UHGV virus genome: UHGV-0071260
Length of the DNA stretch: 24,179 nt
Strand: one strand, 5' to 3'
DNA from: a virus
The translations under genes were made by a program, and so were the position numbers. The notes under the pieces were generated by a model. That model ran no database searches. It had not been told where the DNA came from and was given only the letters and a program-made list of their open reading frames with translations. This document shows positions 13,278-17,388 of this stretch, one piece after another. The number at the start of each line of letters is the position of its first letter. Within the stretch, counting starts at the first letter, position 1.

Positions 13278-13339
13278 CCATAATCGCGCATAAAAAACAA
13301 ATAGATTAAAATATTTCCTAACAATGCGAAATTGTAATT

Positions 13340-13362
13340 GCCCGGCCCGCGCCGGGTTTTTG
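13340..13362 (+). terminator. intrinsic terminator upstream of the holin gene (candidate tR'-like element)
   Basis: Stem CCCGGC / GCCGGG with loop CCGC followed by TTTTT; in a 104-bp AT-rich intergenic region. Confidence 0.55.
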
Positions 13363-13381
13363 CTTTGTTGGAGGTAAATCT

Positions 13382-13582
13382 ATGTTCGACAAAATACGGG
13401 AGGCGTGCGCGTATGCAGTAGGGGCCGTAACGGCCTTTTTTGGTGCGATAACCATTAATGATGTTGCTGTCTTTGTGGGTATCTTATCAACCGTAGGCAC
13501 ATTTGCCGTTAACTATTACTTCAAATCACAGGAGAACAAGCGAGCGCAAGAGGAACACGACGCGCGAATGGGGAATAAGTAA
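13382..13582 (+). CDS. class II holin (pinholin-like)
   Basis: 66 aa with two hydrophobic helices and a charged C-terminus (YFKSQENKRAQEEHDAR); directly upstream of a SAR endolysin. Confidence 0.7.
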   Translation: MFDKIREACAYAVGAVTAFFGAITINDVAVFVGILSTVGTFAVNYYFKSQENKRAQEEHDARMGNK

Positions 13583-13583
13583 C

Positions 13584-14075
13584 ATGATTAACCAATCGCT
13601 GAAAAACCGATTAACTAAGGCGGCGGCTGGTGGAGTATTAGCCATTGCATCCGTTTTGCTTGTATGGGTTGAGGGTACGGCTTACGAGCCTTATTACGAT
13701 ACCGGAGGCGTGCTAACTGTATGCAATGGCATAACTGGACCTGATGTTGTCCCAGGTAAGAGATACACACCGGATGAATGCGAGAGACTTTTACAAAAAC
13801 ACTTAGCCGTTTATAAAAAGGCGGTAGATCGTTATGTAAAAGTTGACATGAATGACTACCAACGCGCCGCGCTAATTAGCTTTTCATACAATATCGGGGT
13901 TGACGCTTTCAAAAAATCAACCTTGTTAAAAAAAATAAACAAAGGCGACTTTAAAGGGGCGTGTAAGGAGTTAGATCGCTGGGTATATGATAACGGGCGA
14001 TACATACAGGGCTTAAAAAATCGTCGCGATATTGAGCGCACCGTTTGTGAGTGGGGCGTAAATGATGGAAAGTGA
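13584..14075 (+). CDS. SAR endolysin (phage lysozyme, T4-lysozyme fold)
   Basis: N-terminal signal-anchor-release helix AAAGGVLAIASVLLVWV; catalytic E-x8-D-x5-T spacing (EGTAYEPYYDTGGVLT); close resemblance to P21 R; track ORF 13503 starts upstream of the likely ATG. Confidence 0.9.
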   Translation: MINQSLKNRLTKAAAGGVLAIASVLLVWVEGTAYEPYYDTGGVLTVCNGITGPDVVPGKRYTPDECERLLQKHLAVYKKAVDRYVKVDMNDYQRAALISFSYNIGVDAFKKSTLLKKINKGDFKGACKELDRWVYDNGRYIQGLKNRRDIERTVCEWGVNDGK

Positions 14076-14586
14076 TAATGAACTAAAACGAAAACTACAC
14101 TACGACCCGGCAACAGGTATTTTTACCTATAAAGTTAGCCCACACGGGAGGATCAAGGCGGGTAGTGTAGCCGGGTATAAACATAAAAGCGGGTATATAT
14201 ACATAGGAAGATATAAAGCGCATCGCCTCGCGTGGTTTTTCCATTATGGGGTGTGGCCCGAAAAGGACATTGATCATATTAATGGGATAAAAACAGACAA
14301 CAGGATAGTAAACCTTAGAGAAACAGATGATGCGCATAATTGCAGAAACAAGAAACATATTACCACTCATACATTGTCTGCATTCAGGGGCGTTAGCTAC
14401 CACAAAACGGATCGTGGTAATCCTAAGTGGCGGGTAAGAATTACTGACAATAACGGTAAACGTATATCTATTGGTTTATTTGACTCACTAGACGAAGCAA
14501 TCGCCGCTCGCATTTTGGCAGAAAACTTTTTCTATGGTGAATATGCACCTTCGATGGGTTGCGAGGGGGAAACGTGGACAAGATAA
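14062..14586 (+). CDS. HNH homing endonuclease with AP2-type DNA-binding domain
   Basis: HNH motif DHINGIKTDNRIVNLRETDDAHN and AP2-like segment FRGVSYHK...WRVRI; overlaps endolysin 3' end and Rz 5' end. Confidence 0.85.
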   Translation: MMESDNELKRKLHYDPATGIFTYKVSPHGRIKAGSVAGYKHKSGYIYIGRYKAHRLAWFFHYGVWPEKDIDHINGIKTDNRIVNLRETDDAHNCRNKKHITTHTLSAFRGVSYHKTDRGNPKWRVRITDNNGKRISIGLFDSLDEAIAARILAENFFYGEYAPSMGCEGETWTR

Positions 14587-15044
14587 AGGCGTTAATCATC
14601 GCCGTTGTTGTTTGCATTATTGCCGGACTGACCGCCGTAACGTGTTATTACCAGAGTGAGGCGGCAAGGTTACAGGAAGAAGTCACGGTGACGAAAGGCG
14701 CACTGAAAACGGCAAGTAACACTATTCAGCAGATGAAGGAGCGAAACGCCGAACTGTCAAAACTTGATAAGAGGTATCACGATGAGATTAAAGCTATCAG
14801 ATCTGACATTGCCGATCTGCGCACTGGCATTGATAACGGTACTATCCGGTTGCGCGTCAACGCAACACCTGTGCGAGTGTCCGACCCCACCGGATCCGCC
14901 AGCGCCATTGATGGAGCCGCCTGTAGACTCACTCCCGACGCTGAATCGGCTTATCTATCCCTCAGAGAACAACTAAAAGAGAAAGATGCGAAGATAACCG
15001 CACTTCAGAGCTACATCAAAACGCAGTGCTTACGCAAAGAATAA
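14574..15044 (+). CDS. Rz: i-spanin Rz
   Basis: N-terminal TM helix then coiled-coil-like region; embedded +1-frame lipoprotein ORF; probable GTG start at 14574 after GAGGGGGA (the track lists TTG 14559). Confidence 0.75.
   Translation: MDKIKALIIAVVVCIIAGLTAVTCYYQSEAARLQEEVTVTKGALKTASNTIQQMKERNAELSKLDKRYHDEIKAIRSDIADLRTGIDNGTIRLRVNATPVRVSDPTGSASAIDGAACRLTPDAESAYLSLREQLKEKDAKITALQSYIKTQCLRKE
14782..14976 (+). CDS. Rz1: o-spanin Rz1 (lipoprotein embedded within Rz)
   Basis: Lipobox LSGC after signal peptide MRLKLSDLTLPICALALITV; proline-rich mature part; AGAGGT RBS before ATG 14782. Confidence 0.7.
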   Translation: MRLKLSDLTLPICALALITVLSGCASTQHLCECPTPPDPPAPLMEPPVDSLPTLNRLIYPSENN

Positions 15045-15214
15045 CAGCGCGTGGACGTGTCGCCGTTTCTGCCAGCCAGCCATAACCGGGCCAATCCTTC
15101 CCGCGAGCGACGGCGGAAATTCAAAAACACGTAATACCGGGTAAACAACCTCATTAACAGGTCGGGCGCTACCTGGGTAGAAGAAAGCGCCATTCTCCAG
15201 TTTTATAAAATTCT

Positions 15215-15243
15215 AAAAACGGTACTCACTCAGCGCCGTTTTT
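15215..15243 (+). terminator. weak candidate hairpin/terminator in the Rz-downstream intergenic region
   Basis: AAAAACGG / CCGTTTTT 8-bp arms around a 13-nt loop; AT-rich stem, low stability. Confidence 0.2.
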
Positions 15244-15323
15244 AGTGTTTTATAGCTGTTTTCACTCCCTGCGGTGTCCAGTTTTGCGGGGGGTTATATT
15301 TTTCAGAATAGGAGATTATTCTG

Positions 15324-15851
15324 ATGGCTAAGGCTAAAGGCATTAAATTGCCTCAATTTAAGATCCCACTCTTTGAGCATACAACAGTTTTCTTTTGCCC
15401 GACCCGCGAGATGTTCTATGAATTTTGCGAAAAGGCAGGAATTCCGATTGAACCTGATTTCGAGTTGGCTGGAGGATTAACGCTTACTTGCACTGGCGAG
15501 AATGGTGGTAACTTCTACGTGATCGCAGTATTCAACAATGAGTTGGGAACGCTAACGCATGAAGTGGCACATGCCACATTTCATTGTTTAAGTGATGTTG
15601 GCGTAATGGCTACAACAGATCCAAGCCATCCGGCAAATGAAACTTACGCTTATATGATTGGACGTATGTTTGATGCTTTTTATCCTGTACTACTTGAAAG
15701 CATCGACGCACAAGCCGCAGCTATCAGGGCGCAACAAGCGCTAGAAGAAGCTGAAAGAAAAAAAGAAGCCAAAAGAAAAGCAAAAACAAAAGAGCCGCCG
15801 AAAGTGGGAAAATACATTATTGCGGGGCAAAGCCGTTATGCAATGGGATGA
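15324..15851 (+). CDS. hypothetical protein with HExxH motif (possible zinc-metallopeptidase-like)
   Basis: THEVAH motif; Lys/Glu-rich C-terminal tail; AGGAGA RBS. Confidence 0.45.
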   Translation: MAKAKGIKLPQFKIPLFEHTTVFFCPTREMFYEFCEKAGIPIEPDFELAGGLTLTCTGENGGNFYVIAVFNNELGTLTHEVAHATFHCLSDVGVMATTDPSHPANETYAYMIGRMFDAFYPVLLESIDAQAAAIRAQQALEEAERKKEAKRKAKTKEPPKVGKYIIAGQSRYAMG

Positions 15852-16323
15852 TTATTTCAGTTATAACCCAGAAACAGAGGATCTAATGTGGAAGGTATAC
15901 AGATCTCCCAACGCAAAACCAGGCGACATTATCAGGGGGACTAAATCTAGAAACAAGCACTTGAGAGTAAATTTAAACAGAAAATATTATCAAGTTCATT
16001 GCATTATATGGGAAATGCACAACGGCCCGATACCGGAAGGAATGGAGGTAGACCATATTGACCATGACAAATGGAATAATAGGTTGCCAAACTTAAGACT
16101 CGTTGACGATGAGGGTAATGCGCATAATATGAGCTTGTTTAAAACTAACACAAGCGGCGTTTCCGGTGTCGGATGGCATAGCCAGCGTAAAAAATGGCGA
16201 GCAACAATATGGCATAAATGCAAGCAAATATCTCTTGGGTTGTTTGATAATTTTGATGATGCTGTAATGGCGCGGCGTGAAGCTGAAATTAAATATGGCT
16301 ATCACCCAAATCATGGTCATTGA
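15838..16323 (+). CDS. HNH homing endonuclease with AP2-type domain (second copy)
   Basis: HNH motif DHIDHDKWNNRLPNLRLVDDEGNAHN and AP2-like segment SGVSGVGWH...WRATI; the track start at 15820 is TTG, ATG is at 15838. Confidence 0.85.
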   Translation: MQWDDYFSYNPETEDLMWKVYRSPNAKPGDIIRGTKSRNKHLRVNLNRKYYQVHCIIWEMHNGPIPEGMEVDHIDHDKWNNRLPNLRLVDDEGNAHNMSLFKTNTSGVSGVGWHSQRKKWRATIWHKCKQISLGLFDNFDDAVMARREAEIKYGYHPNHGH

Positions 16324-16340
16324 TTTAAACGAGGCTGATT

Positions 16341-16415
16341 ATGATTGACCCGCTAATCATCCTTTCTGCCTGCGTCGCTGTATGGCTGGCGATCATGATA
16401 TTCATTGAAAGCTGA
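16341..16415 (+). CDS. mini-ORF 1 of 7, single hydrophobic helix (24 aa)
   Basis: MIDPLIILSACVAVWLAIMIFIES; GAGG RBS; read from sequence. Confidence 0.35.
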   Translation: MIDPLIILSACVAVWLAIMIFIES

Positions 16416-16425
16416 AGGTATCAAC

Positions 16426-16500
16426 ATGAATATTTACGATCTCATCTGGTGGTCATTGGTCGCCGTCATTATCTATTTCTGGTGGAAGAATGTTGTATAG
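16426..16500 (+). CDS. mini-ORF 2 of 7, single hydrophobic helix (24 aa)
   Basis: MNIYDLIWWSLVAVIIYFWWKNVV; AAGG RBS. Confidence 0.35.
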   Translation: MNIYDLIWWSLVAVIIYFWWKNVV

Positions 16501-16508
16501 GTGAAAGC

Positions 16509-16598
16509 ATGAACGCATGCGAAATGCTATTGCTGGTGGCTGTAGTTGTAGTTATTGCCGTGGACGTATACCGGGAGATTAAAAATGAAATGGCTTGA
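16509..16598 (+). CDS. mini-ORF 3 of 7, single hydrophobic helix (29 aa)
   Basis: MNACEMLLLVAVVVVIAVDVYREIKNEMA; AGGTGA RBS. Confidence 0.35.
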   Translation: MNACEMLLLVAVVVVIAVDVYREIKNEMA

Positions 16599-16650
16599 TT
16601 TCTTTTTCCTGATTGTTGCGATTGTTATTACCATGACTGCGCTAACTTAA
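16585..16650 (+). CDS. mini-ORF 4 of 7, single hydrophobic helix (21 aa)
   Basis: MKWLDFFFLIVAIVITMTALT; overlaps mini-ORF 3 by 14 nt. Confidence 0.3.
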   Translation: MKWLDFFFLIVAIVITMTALT

Positions 16651-16661
16651 TAGGTGAGCGA

Positions 16662-16736
16662 ATGAACGCTATTGATATTATGTTGATCGTGTGTACCGTT
16701 GCGTTATTTATTGTCGGAGTGATTATCAATGTCTGA
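16662..16736 (+). CDS. mini-ORF 5 of 7, single hydrophobic helix (24 aa)
   Basis: MNAIDIMLIVCTVALFIVGVIINV; AGGTGAG RBS. Confidence 0.35.
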   Translation: MNAIDIMLIVCTVALFIVGVIINV

Positions 16737-16797
16737 CAGTGATTTCTTAATCATGGCTACATGCACGTTGTTAGTAGTTATCGTTTTCTTCGCATAA
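16729..16797 (+). CDS. mini-ORF 6 of 7, single hydrophobic helix (22 aa)
   Basis: MSDSDFLIMATCTLLVVIVFFA; ATGTCTGA overlap with mini-ORF 5. Confidence 0.3.
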   Translation: MSDSDFLIMATCTLLVVIVFFA

Positions 16798-16807
16798 AGG
16801 TTAAACA

Positions 16808-16891
16808 ATGAAGGAGCTATTCGATTGGTTGGAAGTATTAACATACTGCGCAAGTTTTGTGGCTTGCGTATATATCATCAATAAATATTGA
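16808..16891 (+). CDS. mini-ORF 7 of 7, single hydrophobic helix (27 aa)
   Basis: MKELFDWLEVLTYCASFVACVYIINKY; AAGG RBS; stop overlaps the terS leader. Confidence 0.35.
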   Translation: MKELFDWLEVLTYCASFVACVYIINKY

Positions 16892-16902: not shown

Positions 16903-17388
16903 ATGGCCCGCACTAAAAAGGCAAATGCTGACGATAAAAAGCCAGCCGCCAAAAAGGTGGGCCGTCCGCATGGCTATACCGAAGAAAAGGCATTAGAGAT
17001 CTGTGAGCTGGTGGCGGACGGTCAAAGCGTTAACAAAATTTCGAAAATGCCAGGTATGCCAACACGTTCGACAATCCTTAAGTGGTTCCGTGATGTGCCG
17101 GAATTTTCGGACATGTACATGCGCGCGAAGGAGATCGGCTTTGAGGTATTGGCTGATGAGATCATCGATATAGCTGATGCAGCGGAGAACACTGATAAAG
17201 ATCAATTGCGCCGCCATCAACTGATGATTGAAACGCGTAAATGGTTACTGGCAAAACTGCAACCGCGTAAATACGGTGAACGCGTCACACAGGAGATTGT
17301 CGGCAATAGGGAGGAGGCGCCAGTACAGGTGGAAGTAACGAAAGAAGAGATCGCCCGCATCGTCCAGGAAGTAGAAGATGAGGTGTGA
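16903..17388 (+). CDS. terS: terminase small subunit
   Basis: Signature GRPHGYTEEKALEICELVADGQSVNKISKMPGMPTRSTILKWF...EFSDMYMRAKEIGFEVLADEIIDIAD typical of HTH-type small terminases; GAGAGGTGAG RBS before ATG 16903. Confidence 0.8.
   Translation: MARTKKANADDKKPAAKKVGRPHGYTEEKALEICELVADGQSVNKISKMPGMPTRSTILKWFRDVPEFSDMYMRAKEIGFEVLADEIIDIADAAENTDKDQLRRHQLMIETRKWLLAKLQPRKYGERVTQEIVGNREEAPVQVEVTKEEIARIVQEVEDEV

Follow-up and report, generated by a model that had tools for sequence, protein, structure and literature searches.

An HNH-AP2 endonuclease gene and a linked endolysin allele at the endolysin-spanin junction of an mEp021-like coliphage

The lysis cassette of the virus genome UHGV-0071260 (24,179 nucleotides, analyzed at full length and called the window here) carries a free-standing HNH-AP2 endonuclease gene between its endolysin and Rz genes, where related phages have nothing. 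The gene is part of a larger block that also includes most of a foreign endolysin, and its reading frame runs out in the last codons of the resident endolysin that was displaced. We consider it probable that a lineage of free-standing homing endonucleases specialized on the endolysin-spanin junction entered this cassette, together with the linked endolysin, by co-conversion. Cleavage and homing by the HNH protein are putative.

Results

The lysis cassette and its HNH-AP2 gene

The window is an mEp021-like (mEpimmI) coliphage, with 87-89% identity to this group over 69-82% of its length; the group is that of PMC11893012, where HNH genes are not mentioned. The outer genes of its lysis cassette (Table 1) are of the resident type, with a holin of ~90% nucleotide identity to those of mEp013, mEp021, and MagusPhagus and an Rz gene that is 89-93% identical to the relatives from position 14559 on and starts with GTG in the window and with ATG in L024 and mEp021. 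The endolysin is a hybrid. Its first ~8-17 codons are of the resident type and the remainder is of an imported type that has a complete end of its own (...V C E W G V N D G K stop), and the protein is 54% identical in amino acid sequence to the lysozyme R of mEp013. The hairpin that ends the cassette is followed by a U-run and corresponds to the annotated terminator T11 of mEp013; it was missed by the consensus terminator scan. Two E. coli prophages (STEC308, L004 2740-3342; MLI107, L005 2736-3338) have a 200-aa hypothetical gene directly 3' of Rz and overlapping its end, which is absent from the window and the mEp phages.

Table 1. Coordinates of the lysis-region features and of the second HNH gene in the window
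Feature	Position	Strand	Basis and remarks
Class II (HP1-family) holin, resident type	13382-13582	+	Pfam Phage_holin_2_3, E 6.7e-16
SAR endolysin (GH24 phage lysozyme), hybrid, 163 aa	13584-14075	+	Pfam Phage_lysozyme, E 1.5e-41
Imported block (endolysin body and HNH gene)	13634-14559	+	blastn breakpoints 13633 and 14559 against L001-L003; alignments; sliding identity profile
Free-standing HNH-AP2 endonuclease ORF, 174 aa	14062-14586	+	Intact; start ATG 14062 or 14065
HNH (beta-beta-alpha-metal) nuclease core	14212-14340	+	Residues 51-93
AP2-fold DNA-binding domain	14380-14544	+	Residues 107-161; three strands and a helix
Remnant of displaced resident endolysin 3' end	14560-14586	+	Codon-by-codon junction table
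Rz i-spanin, resident type, 156 aa	14574-15044	+	Pfam Phage_lysis, E 3e-25; GTG start
Rz1 o-spanin lipoprotein, within Rz in another frame	14782-14976	+	Pfam Rz1, E 2.3e-8; lipobox LSGC
Terminator-like hairpin ending the lysis cassette	15198-15258	+	RNA fold dG -23.7 kcal/mol, z -8.8
Second HNH-AP2 gene, distant paralog	15838-16323	+	Pfam HNH_3, E 3.2e-19; 38% identity to the first HNH

An earlier note on this DNA had described a free-standing HNH endonuclease with an AP2-type domain that lies between endolysin and Rz and overlaps the ends of both, and each part of that description is borne out. The HNH reading frame takes up the whole interval from the endolysin stop to the Rz start, overlapping the former (TGA 14073-14075) by 14 nt and the latter (GTG 14574) by 13 nt before it stops at TAA 14584-14586. 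Its start is preceded by GGGG at 14053-14056, which is provided by the C-E-W-G codons of the imported endolysin. The nuclease core matches Pfam HNH_3 (PF13392) at 52.1 bits (cut-off 24.8) over residues 51-93 and has the beta-beta-alpha-metal fold. A PDB profile search matched the protein to 1u3e (I-HmuI; E 1.4e-6), with Asp71 and His72 aligned to the DH of I-HmuI, and D71, H72, N80, N84, N93, and N96 are invariant across 120 aligned homologs. The match to AP2 (PF00847, residues 107-153) falls below threshold, at 24.6 bits against a cut-off of 33.3 (E 3.1e-5), and the paralog scores 23.1 bits against the same cut-off; the domain does have a three-stranded sheet on a helix that is superposable on solved AP2/ERF domains. 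The protein matches PHROG 99, "HNH endonuclease," at E 4e-61.

A scan of 13300-16500 with Rfam at E up to 1 returned no RNA family and no group I intron. A group I intron or intein was ruled out as the carrier of the gene on this result and on the lack of space outside the reading frame. A consensus scan of the cassette for a promoter or terminator belonging to the HNH gene found none above shuffled expectation.

The HNH gene is evidently under purifying selection, with its function maintained. Its dN/dS is 0.06, 0.12, and 0.12 against the variants L024, L133, and L134, respectively, at dS of 0.46-0.75, and the values for the endolysin are similar (0.04-0.14). The reading frame is full length and intact in every HNH copy except one (L145, 1349-1860), in which a one-base insertion in a T-run (+1 frameshift) splits it; the 119-aa remainder carries the NCBI annotation "Fis family transcriptional regulator." This frameshift may be decay or a homopolymer sequencing error. 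The gene is also mosaic among E. coli variants (L133, 2501-3028; L134, 2501-3019; equivalent to window 14240-14450). In a sliding identity profile, the L133 gene is 98-100% identical to that of the window in its 5' half and 70-88% in its 3' (AP2) half, and the identity of the L134 gene falls to 65-72% in the linker and first AP2 strands, which suggests exchange or rapid change in the DNA-binding part.

Empty sites and a replaced block

Empty sites, on whose existence the insertion proposed in the earlier note depended, are common. The temperate coliphages compared (mEp021, mEp010, mEp013, mEp044, mEp515, mEp554, and MagusPhagus) all have holin, endolysin, and Rz with nothing between them, as do 35 complete E. 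coli genomes, and the holin and Rz flanks of these 7 phages and 35 prophages are homologous to those of the window, so that presence and absence are compared at the same locus. Across the 5,426 complete RefSeq genomes of E. coli, which include the 35 with an empty cassette, the HNH-carrying block does not occur. Empty and filled haplotypes coexist, the empty one being much commoner in complete genomes; the filled allele is in the minority and has clearly not swept.

Nucleotide homology to the empty alleles is lost at 13608-13633 (endolysin codons 9-17), within a conserved endolysin stretch, and is regained at 14559/14560, 27 nt ahead of the resident endolysin stop. Between these breakpoints, the relatives have 411 bp of resident endolysin and the window has 925 bp. 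The rearrangement is a replacement of a block consisting of endolysin body and HNH gene and not a clean insertion of the HNH gene alone. A donor search at the DNA level among phage records returned only short matches of 70-78% and no donor. An allele with the window-type endolysin but without the HNH gene was found neither in IMG/VR nor in complete E. coli genomes, nor among the ~35 non-redundant places shown for exact or 93-95% identical endolysins (at least 70 contigs). Comparison with HNH-less relatives, by which the earlier note had meant to define the insertion boundaries, therefore placed the edges of the block (about 13608/13634 and 14559) but not those of the HNH gene, which are not definable in this phage group because this endolysin type and the HNH gene are never found apart.

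The right junction lies inside the HNH reading frame. In the window, this frame ends GGT TGC GAG GGG GAA ACG TGG ACA AGA TAA (G C E G E T W T R stop), of which all but the first codon (TGC GAG GGG GAA ACG TGG ACA AGA TAA, C E G E T W T R stop) makes up the remnant at 14560-14586. The HNH-less endolysin ends GTT TGC GAA TGG GGG GAA ACG TGG ACA AGG TGA (V C E W G E T W T R stop; mEp013), and the HNH gene of L133 ends GGT TGT GAA TGG GGG GAA ACG TGG ACA AGA TAA (G C E W G E T W T R stop), the TGG codon of the remnant being missing in the window and kept in L133. On this codon-by-codon agreement, the HNH reading frame closes with eight or nine codons and a stop that the resident endolysin left behind from its 3' end, still read in their original frame; the number is uncertain because the Cys codon may be native to the HNH clade, all members of which read ...APSxGC at this point. 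Since the HNH tail consists of HNH-less endolysin codons in the same frame, the HNH-carrying arrangement is derived from the HNH-less one. The remnant holds the Rz Shine-Dalgarno sequence (GAGGGGG) and the Rz start, and the tail is disordered in the structure model (residues 172-174, pLDDT below 50). The view of the earlier note that the insertion had kept translational coupling in the cassette agrees with this anatomy, in which the overlaps that permit coupling are present and the HNH gene closes on the last codons and stop of the resident endolysin.

With the C-E-W-G codons of the imported endolysin on one side and the remnant on the other, two copies of TGY GAR (TGG) GG flank the HNH gene. 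Because L133 keeps a near-intact resident junction sequence downstream of its HNH gene, a target confined to those 27 nt is unlikely.

The block is near-identical across prophages whose holin and Rz diverge by 4-9%, and the end points of the near-identical tracts around it vary among prophages; these loci had been chosen for an exact match to either the HNH or the endolysin protein, and decay of identity with distance is expected on that basis anyway. A reading of the near-identity as a recent sweep was downgraded for this reason. L024 has the same arrangement in an evenly diverged form (~9%).

A clade at the endolysin-spanin junction

The exact 174-aa HNH protein occurs on contigs in 160 index blocks of an assembly collection, and the exact endolysin in 31. 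In every context read, a holin gene is followed by genes for an endolysin of 163 aa, an HNH protein of 174 aa, and an Rz of 156 aa, and the mEp021-like prophages concerned differ in their other regions. HNH variants of 95% (L024), 89% (L133), 84% (L134), and 74% (L038) identity are in the same place in the same phage group, where the E. coli variants at this slot comprise L024, L038, L133, L134, and L136-L144, and endolysins 93-95% identical to that of the window are likewise adjoined by an HNH gene.

In unrelated prophages, more distant members (53-61% identity) again lie directly 3' of a Phage_lysozyme gene and 5' of a spanin-type gene. They come from a lambdoid contig that carries NinG and Q (L035), from Yersinia enterocolitica with DUF2570 as the next gene (L036), from Morganella phage IME1369_02 and a Morganella genome (L034 and L042), from two Providencia genomes (L040 and L041), and from Pantoea (L043). 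All examined clade members at 53-91% identity are in the endolysin-spanin slot, in five genera (Escherichia, Yersinia, Morganella, Providencia, and Pantoea) and in unrelated phage backgrounds with differing holins and spanins. HNH_3 matches at 45% identity or below in the same scans had no endolysin within 2.5 kb. Identities of endolysin and HNH protein co-vary across the clade (73/74, 53/53, 54/56, and 58/60%), and the two genes behave as one module, for whose movement plain modular recombination could suffice.

The HNH protein of the distant member L035 ends in ...NRREVEREVCLMR (in longer form, ...GCMKESENRREVEREVCLMR), with NRREVEREICNW as the end of its own endolysin, and that of L036 ends in ...GCMERELCLAG; both HNH ends look like displaced endolysin tails. 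In Pantoea, the endolysins of L043, which has the HNH gene, and L100, which does not, are 87% identical, and homology between the two loci is lost 70 nt ahead of the endolysin stop and comes back ~130 nt into Rz. The two loci make up a further presence/absence pair, independent of the first, and their flanks diverge on either side.

A leader of ~100-150 nt separates endolysin and HNH gene in distant members (L035, 2360-2506; L036, 2360-2506; L034, 2888-2985). In L035 and L036, the Shine-Dalgarno sequence (AAGGAG/AAGGAA) is paired within a long hairpin formed by the leader (z -2.7 and -2.9), and the Morganella leader has a terminator-like hairpin with a U-run. The window lacks a leader of this kind and, unlike L035 and L036, has no leader hairpin.

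The HNH-linked endolysins all carry TVC[NAD]GITG (for example, TVCNGITG), whereas the HNH-less mEp types carry TVCYGHTG. The motif was considered as a mark of cleavage immunity, with a target in the catalytic-site codons, and was dropped, as 15 HNH-less endolysins from IMG/VR have G[IV]TG. Because of these and of the HNH-less L100 endolysin, 87% identical to that of L043, the motif is a lineage trait and not diagnostic.

A second HNH gene and other endonuclease slots

The second, paralogous HNH-AP2 gene that the earlier note had placed downstream is indeed present and, like the first, polymorphic: mEp013 has it (mEp013_67), and mEp021 and MagusPhagus lack it. It overlaps the stop of its upstream gene (15324-15851, PHROG 1365) by 14 nt, the same geometry as that of the first HNH gene. 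In mEp021 and MagusPhagus, ~212 bp stand in place of window 15680-16321, and the 3' end of the upstream gene is longer there and differs from that in the window. The second HNH gene likewise arrived with a swapped 3' end of its neighbor. Further HNH_3 genes of mEp021-like prophages lie in the terS-terL gap (L009, 9299-9802) and upstream of rusA (L012, 1-466); the group has several polymorphic endonuclease slots. Between the second HNH gene and terS, the gap in the window (16341-16891) is filled by seven tandem tiny reading frames (22-31 aa), each of about one hydrophobic helix, for example MIDPLIILSACVAVWLAIMIFIES and MNIYDLIWWSLVAVIIYFWWKNVV; the sets of the relatives are partly different.

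Discussion

The arrangement in the window would be explained if an ancestral holin-endolysin-Rz cassette had received the HNH gene and a linked foreign endolysin allele together, likely from a phage with the HNH gene, through gene conversion or the repair of a double-strand break. On the left, the crossover would have fallen in the conserved first ~8-17 codons of the endolysin; on the right, the junction would have fallen 27 nt before the resident stop. The product is a hybrid endolysin followed by an HNH reading frame that runs into the leftover codons and stop of the old endolysin, and the leftover retains the ribosome-binding site and start codon of Rz. That Rz initiation was left unchanged in this way, and that the four lysis-region genes were kept tightly packed on the late transcript, we hold to be probable as part of this explanation. 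The enzyme would nick or cleave HNH-less endolysin/Rz alleles in a mixed infection or an infected lysogen, and repair would copy the HNH gene and flanking endolysin into the cut alleles, as in intronless homing with co-conversion. The hybrid endolysin and the variable tract ends fit co-conversion, although a gradient is expected anyway among loci picked by exact protein identity. The homing-endonuclease insertion put forward in the earlier note thus survives in part: the gene is of a homing type and empty sites exist, whereas what changed is a whole endolysin-plus-HNH block, and homing would be the route by which it came.

Against homing, the complete linkage of endolysin and HNH gene would also be explained by ordinary recombination of a two-gene block without nuclease drive. 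The block could be a passive mosaic module, exchanged by homologous or microhomology recombination at conserved gene boundaries, in which the HNH gene rides along with no drive, or no longer any, in this phage group. The two genes have not been found separated in ~35 non-redundant places and diverge together, the empty haplotype is the much commoner of two that coexist, the left junction lies in a conserved stretch as is typical of mosaic boundaries, and there is more mosaicism inside the HNH gene itself (L133 and L134). We nevertheless regard this alternative as rather unlikely, for a passive passenger does not call for function as the low dN/dS (0.06-0.12) and the invariant catalytic residues do, and it leaves aside that the same slot is filled in unrelated phages with different holins and spanins, that the Pantoea pair differs by the HNH gene within a single endolysin type, and that displaced endolysin tails are seen at three different junctions.

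The selection on the gene could also mean that the nuclease has been domesticated and is useful to the phage, through late nicking or degradation of competitor or host DNA or as an aid to packaging. HK97 gp74-type HNH proteins are short, are encoded next to terminases, and assist DNA packaging, and the HNH gene of the window would be expressed from the late operon, a short way ahead of the terminase genes (terS at 16888 and terL at 17385). Its absence from most relatives, including all six mEp phages that grow on K-12, means that it is not essential, however; the HNH_3 plus AP2 architecture is that of putative homing endonucleases (PMC10448857) and not of the short gp74 type, the terminase is of the Sf6/Terminase_6 type, and the clade follows the endolysin gene and not the terminase gene. 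A beneficial role of this kind is therefore quite improbable. A packaging HNH protein of the gp74 type in particular was ruled out, as the gene is missing in mEp021, mEp010, mEp554, mEp044, and MagusPhagus and has the wrong architecture. The least credible alternative, to which we give hardly any weight, is a decaying relic, that is, an inactive pseudogene kept only for the 3' end that supplies the Rz start region. The foreign C-terminal tail, disordered in the model, and the frameshifted L145 copy would suit it, but every other copy is intact and full length, no catalytic residue has been lost, and dN/dS stays far below 1 at dS values of up to 0.75; the L145 frameshift, being in a homopolymer, may be an error of sequencing.

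A more far-reaching form of the homing explanation, which we offer as possible but doubtful, is that endolysin and HNH gene make up a two-gene selfish module, an "endolysin drive." The nuclease would attack the resident endolysin or endolysin-Rz alleles of co-infecting phages or prophages, and the linked endolysin would be the cleavage-resistant replacement. The nuclease reading frame, without a 3' end of its own, would be built to land in phase in the last endolysin codons of its victim, leaving spanin translation undisturbed. If this were true, the lysis cassette would be a regular battleground and a route of endolysin exchange in enterobacterial temperate phages.

The window offers a clean and testable natural example of how a tightly packed operon with translational coupling can take up a free-standing endonuclease gene and stay intact. 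Along with the element comes a replacement for the upstream gene, and its reading frame continues into the tail of the old one, which still starts the next gene. Homing endonucleases could also be a cause of endolysin allele exchange among temperate enterobacterial phages. Homing crosses and cleavage mapping should be straightforward, since E. coli K-12 supports growth of the mEpimmI phages and the site is known in both its empty and its filled form. There is also a warning for annotation, as this "HNH endonuclease" ends in eight or nine residues that do not belong to the enzyme.

The nearest solved relative of the HNH protein is I-HmuI of Bacillus phage SPO1 (PDB 1u3e), which is 21% identical to it. 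I-HmuI is encoded within a group I intron and has a C-terminal DNA-binding region of the helix-turn-helix type, whereas the protein of the window is free-standing, without an intron, and has an AP2-fold C-terminal domain. Proteins that combine an N-terminal HNH with a C-terminal AP2 domain are described in PMC10448857 (citing Magnani et al. 2004) as a recognized family, present in phages, cyanobacteria, and protists, whose members are putative homing endonucleases. The window protein has the same domain order as these enzymes (the "IPA-HNH" of Barth et al. 2023; PHROG 99) and, like them, is free-standing, has a patchy distribution, and is encoded beside essential phage genes. Published members are concentrated around the genes for DNA polymerase, ribonucleotide reductase, and terminase in lytic phages (PMC10448857), whereas the clade of the window sits at the endolysin-spanin junction of temperate phages. 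The HNH-AP2 element itself is of an ordinary kind, and its location at the lysis junction is unreported: in the literature, we found no description of an HNH gene or clade tied to the endolysin-spanin junction of temperate phages, and none of a displaced tail reused as the start region of the next gene.

We propose that the mode of spread may be that of the free-standing endonucleases of T4, which, according to PMC2790892 and PMC2988022, home without an intron and co-convert their flanks, so that the neighboring allele travels along. SegF, SegG, and mobE of T4 resemble the HNH gene of the window in being free-standing nuclease genes between or overlapping conserved genes, and the co-conversion of donor flanks, as described in PMC2790892, matches the linked foreign endolysin seen here. 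The T4 enzymes are of the GIY-YIG or other HNH types, are found in lytic T-even phages, and have demonstrated cleavage, whereas cleavage by the HNH protein of the window is putative; the neighbor inherited with it is only 54% identical to the allele replaced.

In anatomy, the closest counterparts are the mobile endonuclease ORFs (mORFs) of fungal mitochondria, known from atp6 of Allomyces macrogynus and from atp6, atp9, cox2, and nad3 of Glomus (PMC3630166). These have the same succession of host gene core, foreign C-terminal part, endonuclease reading frame, and displaced native remnant, partly in phase (PMC3630166). Their enzymes are of the LAGLIDADG or GIY-YIG type and reside in organelle genomes, whereas that of the window is an HNH-AP2 protein in a phage operon. 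Unlike in the mORFs, nearly the whole host gene has been replaced in the window, and the remnant doubles as the translation-start region of the next gene.
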